From a virus, in UHGV virus genome UHGV-0148877: a stretch of 40,227 nt of DNA, one strand, 5' to 3'. Numbering within the stretch: the stretch's first letter is position 1; every line of letters starts with the position of its first letter. Below are positions 4,587 to 34,598 of the stretch, in pieces. The notes under the pieces were generated by a model that had not been told where the DNA came from, searched no databases, and saw only the letters and a list, made by a program, of their open reading frames with translations. The position numbers and the translations under genes are program-made.

Positions 4587-4603
4587 ATTACCTTTCGGGT
4601 AAT
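4587..4603. promoter_or_regulatory. Operator palindrome ATTACC-TTTCG-GGTAAT
   Basis: Perfect 6+6 inverted repeat, about 75 nt upstream of the SOS-regulated small gene; an upstream hybrid copy ATTACC-TGAAA-AACCAC lies at 4538-4554. Confidence 0.55.
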
Positions 4604-4659: not shown

Positions 4660-4679
4660 ATTGCATGGAGAAGATTAAG

Positions 4680-4937
4680 ATGCAGCAGTATCACTATCCA
4701 CTGGAAGACGGATTTACCGAAAGGATTCACACGCCAGAAGGCGTCAGGTCACTGGTGGAGGGATCGCACTTGATGAAATTACTCCGGGATCTCGATAAGG
4801 ATGGATTTAATGTCGATGGCCCACTTGCCGAACTGACTGCACTGATTAACTACGTCACCAGCTCACAGATGTCTATGCAGGATCTGCAAACACATCTCGA
4901 CTATTGTGCCGAACAATTACGAAAACAAACCCGGTAA
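4680..4937 (+). CDS. Small SOS-regulated protein paralogous to the antirepressor C-terminal domain (candidate antirepressor)
   Basis: 85 aa from the ATG at 4680 (GGAGAAG RBS); LexA box directly upstream; aligns by eye (about 40% identity over about 40 residues) with the C-terminal about 70 aa of the Bro-N antirepressor at 6083-6769 (IHTPEGV/IHSPSGV, AELTALINYV/AELTTMFCYI, DLQTHLDY/DIQTHAEY). Confidence 0.5.
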   Translation: MQQYHYPLEDGFTERIHTPEGVRSLVEGSHLMKLLRDLDKDGFNVDGPLAELTALINYVTSSQMSMQDLQTHLDYCAEQLRKQTR

Positions 4938-4939
4938 AT

Positions 4940-4975
4940 TTAAAGGCCGCAAGAGCGGCCTATCGTTTCGCTTTG
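4940..4975. terminator. Bidirectional hairpin terminator between convergent genes
   Basis: AGGCCGC-AAGA-GCGGCCT hairpin flanked by A/T-rich runs on both sides, between the 4680-4937 (+) and 4960-5688 (-) genes. Confidence 0.5.
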
Positions 4976-5688
4976 TGCTCATCCCAGCACGTTTTGCACC
5001 ATGCCATTAAGCCGTCCGCATTTTGATTATTAGGGTAAAAGCTGGTTCGTTTTCTGCGGACATTACAAATTGGGCACCACTTCATATGGCGTGTATTCTT
5101 TGGGCCATCGAGACACCTTGCACACCACTTAGTCAATCCATCTGGATTTTTTGACGATTTCCTGAATTTTTCATATGGAAGGTTTATTCTGCATCGCAAG
5201 CACTGCTTGCTACCACTTGAAACTCTGTTAGCTGATTCTTCTTTTGGCGGCGATACAGAAGGTATTCTTGCTGGCTCTGATACTGCCTGAGGTGCTTTTT
5301 TAGATGACTGAGACGATATGTCATCACCAGGGAATCTTCCATGATATGCCGGACGCGTTGACACTCCAGGTGGAAGCTCAGCTGTAAACGGCTTTGGCTG
5401 AATCAGTTGCCTCTCTTTTGCTAACTCCTGCTGTTTATAATATGTCTGGATTACCGCACTATCATAAGCAGGAGGTGCGGAAATATTAGGCGCATTACCT
5501 CCAGTTTTTTGAAACTGAGTAGAGGTGTGTTCTATCACCTGTGTACGATTAATCGTTATCTCCCCATCTTCGGTCTTTATCGTTTTGTTATGATTAACGA
5601 CCGTACGATCAGAGATCTTAGTCTTGTTCTGGTTGATAACGTAAATAATCACCGCAACCACACCAACAACTATCCAGAAAACTTCCAT
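4960..5688 (-). CDS. Membrane-anchored protein with tandem Cys-rich (zinc-ribbon-like) C-terminal repeats
   Basis: 242 aa; N-terminal TM helix (VFWIVVGVVAVIIYVI), Pro/Ser-rich linker, then two repeats of C-x2-C ... DGL-x2-WC-x2-C (CLRC...DGLTKWCARC; CPIC...DGLMAWCKTC); AT-rich; no family recognised. Confidence 0.55.
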   Translation of the reverse strand: MEVFWIVVGVVAVIIYVINQNKTKISDRTVVNHNKTIKTEDGEITINRTQVIEHTSTQFQKTGGNAPNISAPPAYDSAVIQTYYKQQELAKERQLIQPKPFTAELPPGVSTRPAYHGRFPGDDISSQSSKKAPQAVSEPARIPSVSPPKEESANRVSSGSKQCLRCRINLPYEKFRKSSKNPDGLTKWCARCLDGPKNTRHMKWCPICNVRRKRTSFYPNNQNADGLMAWCKTCWDEHKAKR

Positions 5689-5707
5689 TGCTTTTCCTCA
5701 CAATAAC

Positions 5708-5724
5708 ATTACTTTAAAGGTAAT
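5708..5724. promoter_or_regulatory. Operator-like palindrome ATTACT-TTAAA-GGTAAT
   Basis: 9/10 core match, 20 nt upstream of the start of the minus-strand membrane-protein gene (5688). Confidence 0.4.
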
Positions 5725-5800
5725 ATCTTGCTTTCAGGTGATCAAGCGTTAAACGCAATCAACCAAATACGGTTGATTTTAATATTTCTTCGCGTTTATC

Positions 5801-5817
5801 ATTACCTTTGCGGTAAA
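5801..5817. promoter_or_regulatory. Operator palindrome ATTACC-TTTGC-GGTAAA
   Basis: Perfect TTACC-N5-GGTAA core in the divergent region between the membrane-protein gene and the antirepressor gene. Confidence 0.5.
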
Positions 5818-6082
5818 TTTACATCGCACTCCTCTTGTGCCATAGTAATCGGGCACTGGCAAAATCCAGTGCCGGGATTGGCGTCCCGAGTTACTACAGA
5901 GGCACATATGCCGCATAAGCGGTTTTTTTATGTGTAAAGCGCACCTATTCTATGGTGGGCTGTGTGGGGGCACCGAAAGGTGCGCCGGGTCCTTTGTAGC
6001 CGGTTACGCCAACCCTGCACAGTTCACCACCAACCGATTGGCGTCGGTAGTGGTGATTAACCTAACTACAAAGGTGATCGCT

Positions 6083-6769
6083 ATGACTGCTAACGTAACC
6101 CCATCTGTTTTTCATTTTGAATCAGAAGCAACCATTCGAGCCATTGTTATTGATGGAAATCCTTGGTTTGTTGCCAAAGACGTTATTAAAGCTCTTCAAC
6201 TGACAAACCCCACTATGTCAATAAAATCTCTTGATGATGATGAAAGGGCTAAATTTAACTTAGGCCGTCAAGGCGAAACCAATATTATCAACGAGTCAGG
6301 CCTCTACACACTGATCCTCCGCTGCCGCGACGCAGTGACACCAGGCACTATCCCCTACCGCTTTCGTAAATGGGTTACAGGTGAGGTTCTTCCTCAGATC
6401 CGCCGCACCGGAAGTTACATTAAAAACTCGCTCCCGCAGGAAGAACGCATAAAGATGGTTGCCGACCAGGTAGCCAACGCCACGGCGTCAGCAGTAATGC
6501 AGGCGATGAAGATAGAGAACAAAACCTACAGTGCCCCACTGAAGCCCGGCTACCGCAGCCTGATTCATTCGCCGTCTGGTGTTCTCGGCCTGACGGAGAA
6601 CTCACTGCTGATGAATCTGCTGAACCAGTTACAGGACGACGGGCACGACGTATCGGGCGCGGCGGCGGAGCTGACCACCATGTTCTGCTACATCGTCGGT
6701 GTGAGCAAATGCCTGCGTGATATCCAGACGCACGCGGAGTACATCAACGACAAGGCAGGGTTCTTCTGA
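6083..6769 (+). CDS. Antirepressor with Bro-N domain
   Basis: 228 aa from the ATG at 6083 (AAGGTGA RBS); N-terminus IRAIVIDGNPWFVAKDVIKAL matches the Bro-N pattern; C-terminal domain paralogous to the 4680-4937 product. Confidence 0.8.
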   Translation: MTANVTPSVFHFESEATIRAIVIDGNPWFVAKDVIKALQLTNPTMSIKSLDDDERAKFNLGRQGETNIINESGLYTLILRCRDAVTPGTIPYRFRKWVTGEVLPQIRRTGSYIKNSLPQEERIKMVADQVANATASAVMQAMKIENKTYSAPLKPGYRSLIHSPSGVLGLTENSLLMNLLNQLQDDGHDVSGAAAELTTMFCYIVGVSKCLRDIQTHAEYINDKAGFF

Positions 6770-6777
6770 CGGGCGGC

Positions 6778-6800
6778 GGCACAGGGATGTGCCTTTAAAT
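6778..6800 (+). terminator. Possible intrinsic terminator after the antirepressor gene
   Basis: GGCACA-GGGA-TGTGCC hairpin followed by TTTAAAT. Confidence 0.35.
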
Positions 6801-6813
6801 AATTCTGTACAGA

Positions 6814-6842
6814 TTGCAGACTGTGGGTGAATAGCGTACTAT
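6814..6842 (+). promoter_or_regulatory. Sigma70-like promoter (TTGCAG-17-TACTAT) overlapping an operator
   Basis: -35 TTGCAG at 6814-6819, 17-bp spacer, -10 TACTAT at 6837-6842; the palindrome at 6841-6857 overlaps the -10 and start region. Confidence 0.45.
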
Positions 6843-6857
6843 TACCTCAAGGGTAAA
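6841..6857. promoter_or_regulatory. Operator palindrome ATTACC-TCAAG-GGTAAA
   Basis: Perfect TTACC-N5-GGTAA core overlapping the -10 of the promoter that reads into the toxin-antitoxin-like pair. Confidence 0.5.
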
Positions 6858-6916
6858 CGGATTGGTTTCATTTTTATTAATCCGTGTAATGAACTTATGA
6901 GATATGAGGTAATGTC

Positions 6917-7096
6917 ATGCGAAACGAAAAATTGCAGATGCGTAGAGCGCAAGCTGCCGCAAGACGTTCTTTCAATGGAAGCGTAGAGTGCGTAAAAGTT
7001 ACTATGACAAAAGATCACGCAAGTCGCGTATCCCGCGCTTTCTTTGATTCTCGTAACAATAAGGAAAATTATGAGTTCGTCTGCGTCGCAGAATGA
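6917..7096 (+). CDS. Small basic protein, candidate antitoxin (below the ORF-track cut-off)
   Basis: 59 aa (MRNEKLQMRRAQAAARRSF...), ATG with GAGGTAAT RBS; overlaps the start of the downstream toxin-like gene by 26 nt, the usual antitoxin-toxin arrangement. Confidence 0.3.
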   Translation: MRNEKLQMRRAQAAARRSFNGSVECVKVTMTKDHASRVSRAFFDSRNNKENYEFVCVAE

Positions 7097-7616
7097 TAAA
7101 AATCAAATTGTCAGATATAAGGGTCGAGTATTGCATACGCAAAATTTCTCGGCCCTTTGTGCATCTGATCTTGAGCTGAAGAAAGTATCTGATGCCTTTA
7201 CCCAGTATTGGAAAACGGGATACCATCCATCTCTTGGTAAAGATGCTGCATTTGCTCGTCCGACAGAAATGCTTAAACTAAATGTCAGGCATACTCATGT
7301 CGATAACCAAGACTATATTCCAGAAGATAGTGATAAAAAACACACTGGTAAAAAATCATCTTGGGATGCATGGAAAAAAATAGCGTCTGTGCAAGTAAAA
7401 TGCATACCAACAAGTAATTGCTTTTTAGTTTATTCGGTAAATCACAATCGTGATGCGCTGGTTATGTTTTTTGTTGACGCAGATGCCCACAACATAACTG
7501 AGCAAGAAGAGTTTAAAGAGGCAGCAATCACTATCAGTTATCAATTCTTTGAGAAAACAAAAACAGAACCAATGCCTTTAGAAGAAGATCTTTTTTCTGA
7601 TAAATGGAAGGAATAA
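7071..7616 (+). CDS. YafO-like toxin-family protein (putative ribosome-dependent mRNA interferase)
   Basis: 181 aa from the ATG at 7071 (AAGGAAAA RBS); segments DAFTQYWKTGYHPSLGKDAAF, LKLNVRHTHV and CFLVYSVNHNRDALVMFFV resemble the conserved blocks I recall for YafO-family toxins; AT-rich; family assignment is from memory. Confidence 0.45.
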   Translation: MSSSASQNDKNQIVRYKGRVLHTQNFSALCASDLELKKVSDAFTQYWKTGYHPSLGKDAAFARPTEMLKLNVRHTHVDNQDYIPEDSDKKHTGKKSSWDAWKKIASVQVKCIPTSNCFLVYSVNHNRDALVMFFVDADAHNITEQEEFKEAAITISYQFFEKTKTEPMPLEEDLFSDKWKE

Positions 7617-14892: not shown

Positions 14893-15467
14893 CAGTAACC
14901 TCCTATTTTGAATCGGGAGTCAGAATTCATAAAACCTGAGTTAGATAACATTGGCGTCCCACCACTAGATGTACTTCCTTTAGAGAACGGACTCCACGTC
15001 CCACCAAACATCTGGTACGCACCGTATGCCTTCAGAGGCGCAGTGAGCAATGTTGTTGCTGCTCCCACATTCCCCTGTTTACGGGCTGAACTGGCTTCTG
15101 CTTTATAGTTGGCAGCCTGAACCTGATAACCGTAAGCCTCGCGTTGCGCGTTATTCACCGTCGTCAGAGAATCAAGAGCGCCAAACTGGGCAGTGTCGCC
15201 AAATATATCCAGCGCGTTACCTGTAGATAAATCAGCGCCGGTAGCCCCCATTGTCGCCGCCTGTGTACCAAGCCGCTGTCGGGTCTCTCTGCGCCGTTGC
15301 TCAGCTTCAGCGTTACCTCTGTTTATTGCATCATTTGCCTGAGCAGTGGCTATATCTGCGTTCGCTTCTGCAACCTTCGAGGCATACTTTCCCTGTTGGT
15401 ACTGGGTGTATGCCTGAATGCCACTCATGGCGAGCATTGCGCCACCAGCAATAACCGGATCGCACAT
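14892..15467 (-). CDS. Internal virion protein (small core protein)
   Basis: 191 aa, Ala/Gly/Gln-rich; position between tail-tube gene and the large ejection proteins. Confidence 0.5.
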   Translation of the reverse strand: MCDPVIAGGAMLAMSGIQAYTQYQQGKYASKVAEANADIATAQANDAINRGNAEAEQRRRETRQRLGTQAATMGATGADLSTGNALDIFGDTAQFGALDSLTTVNNAQREAYGYQVQAANYKAEASSARKQGNVGAATTLLTAPLKAYGAYQMFGGTWSPFSKGSTSSGGTPMLSNSGFMNSDSRFKIGGY

Positions 15468-24812: not shown

Positions 24813-24889
24813 GTGGCATTAGCTCAGTTGGACAGAGCAACCGCCTTCTAAGCGGTTGGTCGCAGGTTCGAATCCTGCATGCCACGCCA
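24813..24889 (+). tRNA. tRNA-Arg (anticodon UCU)
   Basis: 77 nt folded by hand: 7-bp acceptor stem GTGGCAT/ATGCCAC, D stem GCTC/GAGC, anticodon stem ACCGC/GCGGT with loop CTTCTAA (anticodon TCT), T stem GCAGG/CCTGC with loop TTCGAAT, discriminator G, encoded CCA. Confidence 0.9.
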
Positions 24890-34013: not shown

Positions 34014-34598
34014 ATGAAAAGTATCCAGGACGTCCGCAGGCAAAATCTCAACGACTTGATCGACCGTGAATTCAATGGTGTTCAGACGCGGATGGCTGAA
34101 AAACTTGGAACTCAGGCAAATCTGGTAAACCGCTGGGCTCTTGGCAAGAAGGTTATCGGCGACCAGGTTGCGCGAAAAATTGAAGCTGCCGCCAATAAAC
34201 CCCGTAACTGGCTTGATATCGATCGCTCGCTTTCTCAGGAAGGTTTTCAGCCTGTCGGCCCGAGTGATATAGGTCAGCTGGCTGCTCACAACCTGGAACG
34301 CTGGATGAGCGAAAGCCGCGACCTTTCAACGCAGGGAAAACTACACCGCGCATCCGGCGTCGCCCAGGTGACAATCAGCCGCCTGTTAAACAATGAGGTC
34401 AGCGTTTCCATTTCCACCCTGGAGAATGTTGCATCCGCATTCGGGCGTCATGGCTATGAATTACTGATTCACCCGCACGACCCTGCGACTATCAACTATG
34501 ACCGCTCGCGCTACGCATTGTTACCCGAAACCGAGAAAGCAAAGATCGAAAGTTACATTGAATTTGTCATCAACCAGAACGAAAAAAACAAACAATAA
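34014..34598 (+). CDS. Prophage repressor (CI-like, HTH; no S24 peptidase domain evident)
   Basis: 194 aa; N-terminal HTH (GVQTRMAEKLGTQANLVNRWALGKK) and a second HTH-like segment (ASGVAQVTISRLLNNE); divergent from cro-like gene; flanked by operator clusters; followed by a terminator. Confidence 0.7.
   Translation: MKSIQDVRRQNLNDLIDREFNGVQTRMAEKLGTQANLVNRWALGKKVIGDQVARKIEAAANKPRNWLDIDRSLSQEGFQPVGPSDIGQLAAHNLERWMSESRDLSTQGKLHRASGVAQVTISRLLNNEVSVSISTLENVASAFGRHGYELLIHPHDPATINYDRSRYALLPETEKAKIESYIEFVINQNEKNKQ

Follow-up and report, generated by a model that had tools for sequence, protein, structure and literature searches.

The window analysed here, a stretch of DNA of 40,227 nucleotides, belongs to a phiV10/epsilon15-like (Uetakevirus) E. 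coli phage that shares 96-98% identity over long stretches with EC.W1-9, TL-2011b and phiV10. Its antirepressor gene ant is separated by 265 nt (5818-6082) from an operator-like palindrome, and a preliminary description had portrayed this interval as a GC-rich, hairpin-dense untranslated leader within AT-rich surroundings. The length and the composition are as described, with a GC content of 0.50-0.62 within 5800-6100 against 0.31-0.41 in both flanks, and the perfect stems that had been named were all found again: GGCACTGG/CCAGTGCC at 5852-5859/5866-5873, GGCACC-GAAA-GGTGC at 5969-5983 and CCGC-ATAA-GCGG at 5911-5922 followed by T7 at 5923-5929. The structure of the 5818-6082 region is far above chance expectation, the fold z-scores against shuffled copies being -3.0 for 5853-5929, -4.3 for 5954-6031 and -4.9 for 5853-6100. 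An Rfam scan of the whole window returned two full-length plus-strand matches inside 5818-6082, isrK and C4, both above their gathering scores, and the Rfam scans left the minus strand of the stretch without any match. The features of the locus are listed in Table 1.

Table 1. Features of the ant locus and of its operator-like palindromes (coordinates of the window)
Feature	Position	Strand	Remarks
Operator-like palindrome TTACC-N5-GGTAA (TTACCTTTGCGGTAA)	5802..5816	.	right half-site ends 1 nt before the -35 hexamer
Perfect copies of TTACC-N5-GGTAA	4588, 5802, 6842, 24476, 27292, 31551, 31613, 33944, 34656, 34718		
One-mismatch copies of TTACC-N5-GGTAA	5709, 27274, 33896		
Sigma-70 promoter (predicted)	5818..5846	+	-35 TTTACA 5818-5823, 17-nt spacer, TG-extended -10 CATAGT 5841-5846; 9/12 match (promoter scan)
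IsrK-type sRNA, the a1/b1 leader of the C4 system	5853..5929	+	RF01394, 74.2 bits against a gathering score of 50, model 1-77
IsrK hairpin 1	5853-5872	+	fold and alignment
IsrK hairpin 2	5873-5888	+	a1 exposed in the loop
a1 UUGGCGU	5878-5884	+	loop of IsrK hairpin 2
b1 CUACAGAGG	5894-5902	+	single-stranded
Intrinsic terminator GCCGC-AUAA-GCGG + U7	stem-loop 5910-5922, U7 5923-5929	+	terminator scan
C4 antisense RNA, Rfam match	5948-6034	+	RF01695, 79.5 bits against a gathering score of 45, model 1-87
Mature C4 RNA (predicted)	5954..6031	+	ends inferred from the P1 annotation and the GGW rule
C4 GAAA tetraloop hairpin	5970-5983	+	
C4 second hairpin	5984-6004	+	carries the b' loop
b' loop CCUUUGUAG	5991-5999	+	
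a' ACGCCAA	6006-6012	+	single-stranded
a2 UUGGCGU	6038..6044	+	complementary to a', 7 bp
GUGGUGA	6050..6056	+	complementary to UCACCAC 6024-6030 (3' strand of the C4 basal stem)
b2 CUACAAAGG	6066..6074	+	complementary to the b' loop, 9 bp; overlaps the ant Shine-Dalgarno
ant Shine-Dalgarno AAGGUGA	6071-6077	+	5 nt 5' of ATG 6083
ant, Bro-N antirepressor, 228 aa	6083..6769	+	Pfam Bro-N E = 5e-20; phrog_130 'anti-repressor Ant' E = 5e-56

A 90 aa ORF (4665-4937, plus strand) with an operator copy upstream at 4588 shares 40% identity over 82 residues with the C-terminal domain of Ant (residues 143-224), both of them matching phrog_450, and judging from this likeness it could be a stand-alone paralogue of the effector or partner domain of Ant. 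The divergent gene at 4960-5688 (minus strand) encodes a 242 aa protein with an N-terminal hydrophobic segment and C-terminal Cys-rich repeats, which shows a weak likeness to Stc1, endonuclease VII and Lar zinc fingers and is assigned to phrog_6762, a family of unknown function. On the 3' side of ant, an operator copy at 6842-6856 is accompanied by a small ORF (6917-7096, plus strand) and then by a YafO-family toxin-like gene (7071-7616, plus strand) that scores 23.4 bits against Pfam YafO, just below the cutoff, and whose TL-2011b homologue is annotated as a YafO toxin. The two reading frames may constitute a toxin-antitoxin pair controlled by the same operator. A tRNA-Arg(UCU) gene is located at 24813-24889 (plus strand) and is annotated in related O157 typing phages too; ARAGORN finds only this tRNA, far off, and a tRNA-like element or attachment site in the stretch was rejected.

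The palindrome TTACC-N5-GGTAA occurs in 10 perfect copies in the window, where 0.02 would be expected, and the copies that were compared with the ORF list fall in, or at the edge of, gaps between long ORFs. In related phages the half-sites are kept and the centre is variable. The dispersed palindromes look like operators served by a single dimeric repressor, much like the C1 operators in P1, and the HTH_3 protein encoded at 34014-34598, whose gene is flanked by pairs of palindrome copies, is the obvious candidate to bind them. The P1 C1 operator is presumably asymmetric, unlike the symmetric palindrome of the window. A CRISPR-DR57 match on the operator has an E value of 0.62 and was dismissed as noise.

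The promoter scan predicts a single promoter for the cassette and places the transcription start at G5853, which coincides with position 1 of the Rfam isrK model. The nATAGT -10 element is kept at equal distance in P1 and other loci, and no minus-strand promoter was found between 5500 and 7000. The designation of the whole of 5818-6082 as an untranslated leader thus holds for the part that would be transcribed, from 5853 onwards, and fails for the first 35 nt (5818-5852), which are promoter. Three roles had been suggested for the stretch (attenuator, small RNA, antisense target), and all of them are present in a known combination, namely the terminator at 5910-5929, the C4 gene at 5954-6031 and the target formed by a2 and b2.

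The RNA that begins at 5853 contains the complete isrK family structure, that is two 5' hairpins, a spacer and a Rho-independent terminator, as seen by folding, terminator scan and alignment. The end of b1 is 7 nt away from the terminator stem. The sequence of the IsrK-type RNA shows one feature of a putative Hfq ligand, the terminator hairpin with its U7 tail, which is a usual Hfq-binding module. A laxer scan also gave a match to RF03163, 'a1, b1 targets of C4' (c4-a1b1), at 5840-5892 (model 1-53, E = 6.9e-10), its 44.3 bits being just below the gathering score of 46.7. This model scores 51.0 bits on the P1 leader, and on 11 homologous phage loci (L001-L011) it reached the gathering score only in L011 (50.1 bits), with the other ten at 36-46.4. 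The terminator is flanked by GCACAUA (5902-5908) and UAUGUGU (5929-5935), which lengthen its helix; pairing of these flanks in a run of at least 6 nt is found in 83% of cognate loci versus 45% of non-cognate pairs, a weak to moderate signal.

The second RNA, C4, is composed of a basal stem of 16 bp that encloses two hairpins and the single-stranded a' segment, and the MFE fold of the region (z = -4.3) is the Rfam family structure. The RNase P site of P1 C4 has its counterpart in UAU|GGU at 5951-5956, where cleavage is predicted to occur; the 3' end reads ACC(A), with ACCA at 6029-6032. In the P1 annotation C4 spans 48343-48419, inside an Rfam match of 48337-48422, so that its mature ends fall at model positions equivalent to those predicted in the window. 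An RNase P 5' end at a GGW motif, a tRNA-like acceptor stem and an ACC(A) 3' end are features of P1 C4 (PMC5320573). The 3' strand of the basal stem has a second potential partner downstream (6024-6030 with 6050-6056), and this alternative helix is 97.1% paired over 70 loci, with four of its seven pairs compensatory. An inner stem (6034-6037 with 6044-6047) goes with it. The alternative helix would set a2 in a hairpin loop, like a1, in unprocessed transcripts only, and it may serve as a folding switch or have a role in 3'-end processing.

The predicted 3' end of C4 is 51 nt from the start of ant. This gene is preceded by a Shine-Dalgarno of its own, with b2 ending 8 nt before the ATG, and the ORF list of the window contains no icd-like ORF between C4 and ant. 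All four target sites in the window match their C4 partners, over 7 nt for a and 9 nt for b. A second bipartite C4 target was not found elsewhere in the window, in which only isolated, unpaired single-site matches occur at 14950, 18989 and 33606. The duplex energies of b' and a' with their targets are beaten by 2-8% of shuffles, which for a single sequence is weakly significant, and co-folding of C4 with its targets in RNAcofold gave no net gain (ddG about 0), as the calculation takes the C4 loops to be closed. Since the energetics of one sequence are too weak alone, the comparative evidence was relied upon.

A protein-coding role for the region, either as an extension of Ant from the ATG at 5930 or as an orf45-like leader peptide coupled to ant, appears extremely unlikely. 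The in-frame extension had already been described as a weak ORF that lacks an RBS, and this was confirmed: the frame from ATG 5930 is open through to 6083 and would add 51 codons to Ant, but it has no Pfam match, is not preceded by a Shine-Dalgarno sequence and starts only a few nt from where the terminator U-run ends. The leader peptide has a precedent in Gifsy-1, where a 45-codon ORF over the equivalent region is translated and coupled to anrP (PMC4825925), but in the window the ORF opened by the invariant AUG(GUGG) at 5952 runs for just 15 codons before it meets a TAG (5997-5999) in the b' loop. An ORF of orf45 length that reaches the next gene is present in only about six of 104 loci, and conservation tracks base-pairing rather than codons.

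The comparative evidence comes from viral contigs, which were scanned with a pattern made of invariant parts (the hairpin 1 loop, CGG, AUGGU and CCACC) from which the a and b sites were excluded. The 120 loci so obtained were merged with earlier loci into 109 unique regions, 104 of which could be parsed, and among these a' takes 26 forms and b' takes 56. A site complementary to its cognate partner over 7 nt or more was found for a1 in 102 of the 104 loci, for a2 in 103, for b1 in 98 and for b2 in 93. The a'/a1/a2 and b'/b1/b2 sites therefore co-vary three ways, the match being present in 89-99% of loci for cognate partners versus 7-24% for non-cognate ones. In 75 of the 93 loci with a matching b2, its 3' end lies 6-11 nt 5' of the ATG.

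Structure prediction and covariation across homologous loci had been proposed as a check on the leader, and they yielded folds that match the families and helices that are 93-99% paired in 70 loci, each with its own a'/b' combination, that were aligned with MAFFT. Pairing is highest in the C4 basal stem (99.4%, with 10 of 16 pairs changed on both sides), followed by C4 hairpin 2 (98.9%, 3/5), IsrK hairpin 1 (98%, 6/7), the a'-a2 helix (96.9%, 6/7), C4 hairpin 1 (95.6%, 5/5), the a1-a' helix (94.3%, 6/7) and IsrK hairpin 2 (93%, 2/5). Control helices in which one partner was slid by 1-3 columns are 30-50% paired. This alignment fails to bring the b sites and the terminator into register, the terminator helix scoring only 56% paired, and b pairing was therefore scored per locus by a direct search for the complement. 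The downstream genes are of antirepressor type throughout (Bro-N, ORF6N, Rha, AntA, P22_AR_N, KilA-N or Icd), so that the RNA cassette is a portable control unit for such genes; Icd homologues were found in 8 of 83 cases and in P1-like loci only.

The cassettes of four loci (L131, L112, L017 and L125) are mosaics, each with one target site out of four that is mismatched to its C4 partner, which suggests recombination breakpoints inside the cassette. L131 has an a1 of UUGGUCU, whereas its a' and a2 are of the UUGGAAC type, and L112 and L017 have lost b2. Such relatives lend some colour to the notion that the cassette of the window is an inert relic, its RNAs recognisable by homology and its regulation lost in this phage. 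This is very unlikely, as the four sites of the window match C4, both models are matched at full length, the promoter and the terminator are intact and near-identical copies occur in many E. coli prophages.

The GC-rich leader 5' of the antirepressor gene is thus very probably a two-RNA immunity cassette of a known type, in which an IsrK-type sRNA is followed by a C4 antisense RNA that masks the RBS of the antirepressor. Read from the sequence, the order of the cassette is a1/b1 - c4 - a2/b2, as in the immI operon of phage P1. The two RNAs belong to named Rfam families and are homologous to P1 immI and Gifsy-1 isrK, and the regulator and its targets are on the same strand, in one transcript, points that go beyond the preliminary description.

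A mechanism for this cassette can be proposed in which the start site, the RNase P processing, the translational repression and the de-repression by IsrK are inferred from P1, P7 and Gifsy-1. Transcription would begin at about 5853 from a promoter that abuts a repressor-type operator, and many or most transcripts would stop at 5910-5929 to give an IsrK-type sRNA of about 77 nt bearing a1 and b1. Read-through past the terminator would be needed to reach ant, and the read-through RNA would contain the C4 precursor, from which an RNase P cut 5' of G5954 would release a C4 RNA of about 78 nt. The b' loop of C4 would then pair with b2 over the ant Shine-Dalgarno while a' pairs with a2 for added specificity, and ribosome entry would be blocked. 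If Ant is not made, the prophage repressor would remain active, and silencing would extend to superinfecting phages that share the a/b type. Pairing of the IsrK-type RNA with C4, or with a'/b' of the long transcript, would relieve the block, so that the ratio of terminated to read-through RNA would set the output of Ant. With icd and orf45 both absent, C4 would act on the RBS of ant itself, and since these are the coupling ORFs of P1 and Gifsy-1, respectively, control may not be the same in every detail. Should the repressor, bound at the operator, close the only predicted promoter in a lysogen, C4 would be scarce, and the cassette might then act mainly in infection or induction.

In Salmonella Gifsy-1 the isrK promoter drives isrK-orf45 (STnc1160)-anrP, and the long RNA is translationally silent; when IsrK is supplied in trans it pairs with the 'orf45' region, and translation of anrP increases by a factor of more than 100 (Hershko-Shalev et al. 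2016, PMC4825925). A different emphasis is conceivable, in which the cassette acts mainly on transcription in the manner of satellite phage P4: C4 would pair with nascent a1/b1 5' of the terminator at 5910-5929 and so set the read-through to ant, and the a1/b1 copies would be a cis autoregulatory sensor rather than a trans decoy. Indeed a1 and b1 always lie directly upstream of an intrinsic terminator, an arrangement kept in about 100 loci, and the Gifsy-1 authors raise the same idea for STnc1160, citing the P4 CI/seqA analogy, and report that IsrK in trans raised fusion transcription 8-fold (PMC4825925). On the other hand, b2 lies on the RBS in most loci, which argues for translational control, the translational effect in Gifsy-1 is 139-fold and far exceeds the 8-fold transcriptional one, and constitutive STnc1160 did not reduce the toxicity of IsrK (PMC4825925). 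By inspection, there is also no obvious antiterminator alternative to the terminator hairpin. Control exerted chiefly through termination is therefore rather improbable, although the decoy and termination mechanisms are not mutually exclusive.

Masking of the ant RBS by C4 remains the preferred reading. The family membership of the two RNAs, their structures, the three-way co-variation of their sites and the position of b2 on the RBS are all observed here, and there is a high probability that the locus is the immI-type RNA immunity cassette of this phiV10/epsilon15-like E. coli phage. More tentatively, and with rather less than even confidence, IsrK-type RNAs that stop at the terminator may act in general as target mimics, soaking up C4 RNAs as an 'anti-antisense' sponge, so that every immI-type cassette would be a programmable switch of three parts, a decoy, an antisense RNA and a target. 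If this is true, read-through at one weak terminator would fix the decoy-to-repressor ratio and thereby decide prophage induction, 'orf45' of Gifsy-1 would be an accidental ORF over the C4 gene, and the window would contain a stripped-down form in which C4 acts directly on the ant RBS.

The c4/ant system dates from 1990. IsrK and AnrP were described in 2016 (PMC4825925), and a 2025 review still gives IsrK and c4 as separate, unrelated sRNAs (PMC12197685). Both RNA families are already curated in Rfam, and the locus adds no new principle. It would account for the silencing of the antirepressor in the phage of the window and its relatives, and a = UUGGCGU with b = CUACAAAGG would define cross-immunity with other prophages. 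A stretch similar to 5790-6100 is present in 941 of 5426 complete E. coli genomes (~17%), in up to 3 copies per genome. At the E. coli copies H53-H60, RefSeq annotates only the Bro-N CDS and no ncRNA feature; RNA genes being absent from RefSeq at these places, the annotation can be improved.

Among the known systems that invite comparison, the immI region of P22 (mnt, arc, ant and sar RNA) is similar in having an antirepressor near tail genes with an extra layer of control at the RNA level. The sar RNA is read from the opposite strand. In the window ant and both RNAs share one strand, and the interval from the promoter to ant, which in P22 accommodates arc, is free of any separate gene. A P22-type sar arrangement was rejected, as no minus-strand promoter was found in 5500-7000, no minus-strand Rfam match was obtained and no Arc or Mnt match was present in the neighbouring ORFs, which match other families or none.

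The likeness to satellite phage P4 is one of arrangement. In P4 a processed antisense RNA, CI RNA, is flanked by upstream and downstream copies of its target in one transcript, and the Gifsy-1 authors cite it as a structural homologue (PMC4825925). Unlike the proposed action of C4, CI RNA pairs with seqA and seqC to cause premature transcription termination and not masking of an RBS. In the APSE phages of Hamiltonella defensa, isrK and c4 are located directly 5' of a Bro-N gene, with a'/b' matching its upstream region (Rouil et al. 2020, PMC7313666). These phages are of another lineage and host, and they differ in their a/b sequences, which are UUGACCU and CUAACAAGG; the phiV10-type b' loop is CCUUUUAG.

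The immI operon of P1 and P7, of the order c4 - icd - ant1/2, is reportedly the subject of studies by Citron and Schuster from 1990 and 1992 and by Hartmann et al. from 1995. The GenBank annotation of P1 gives the order C1 operator Oc4, two c4 promoters, a1, b1, a 77-nt C4 RNA, a2, b2, icd and ant. The window has an operator-like palindrome, a promoter, a1, b1, a hairpin with a U-run, C4, a2, b2 on the RBS and an antirepressor in the same order, and its palindrome at 5802-5816 occupies the place of Oc4, upstream of the c4 promoters. The fold of C4, its RNase P-type GGU 5' end and the logic of a' and b' are likewise shared, and the a and b sequences vary between phages, as they do between P1 and P7. 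Unlike P1, the window has no icd, and b2 lies on the Shine-Dalgarno of ant itself and not on that of an upstream coupled ORF. The two further differ in their antirepressors, a 228 aa Bro-N protein in the window and Ant1/Ant2 in P1, in the number of promoters, one predicted against two, and in lifestyle, the phage of the window being a 40-kb integrating podovirus and P1 a plasmid prophage. The P1 leader itself scores 35 bits against the isrK model and has the same two hairpins and a terminator-like hairpin, which identifies IsrK as the a1/b1 leader of a C4 system.

Gifsy-1 shares with the window the isrK family, the architecture, identical a1, a' and a2 (UUGGCGU/ACGCCAA) and an antirepressor downstream, and in both the long mRNA would arise by read-through of the IsrK terminator. 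Its IsrK-orf45 pairing is supported by the compensatory pairs G28-C162 and G31-C159 (PMC4825925); in the RNA of the window G28 and G31 lie in a1 and have C158 and C155 of a' as partners. The viral contig L098 reproduces every numbered nucleotide of the Gifsy-1 paper (PMC4825925) as well as the 45-codon ORF, and in L098, L052 and L108 positions 1-245 of the extracted region match the isrK-orf45-anrP numbering exactly. The published compensatory mutants therefore sit in the a1-a' helix, and orf45 overlaps the C4 gene, its first AUG being the invariant AUG of the RNase P site. The window differs from Gifsy-1 in the specificity of b and in having no 45-codon ORF, which is cut at 15 codons, and its antirepressor is of the Bro-N and not the ORF6N type. 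Moreover, it has no Q-like antQ upstream, and its cassette is placed between tail-fibre and virion genes, whereas the Gifsy-1 locus adjoins antQ. That IsrK is the a1/b1 leader and orf45 the C4 gene is a modest clarification and not the discovery of a principle, the wider value of which is that it joins the work on P1 c4 to that on Gifsy-1 IsrK, with the co-variation of the sites surveyed over about 100 phage lineages.
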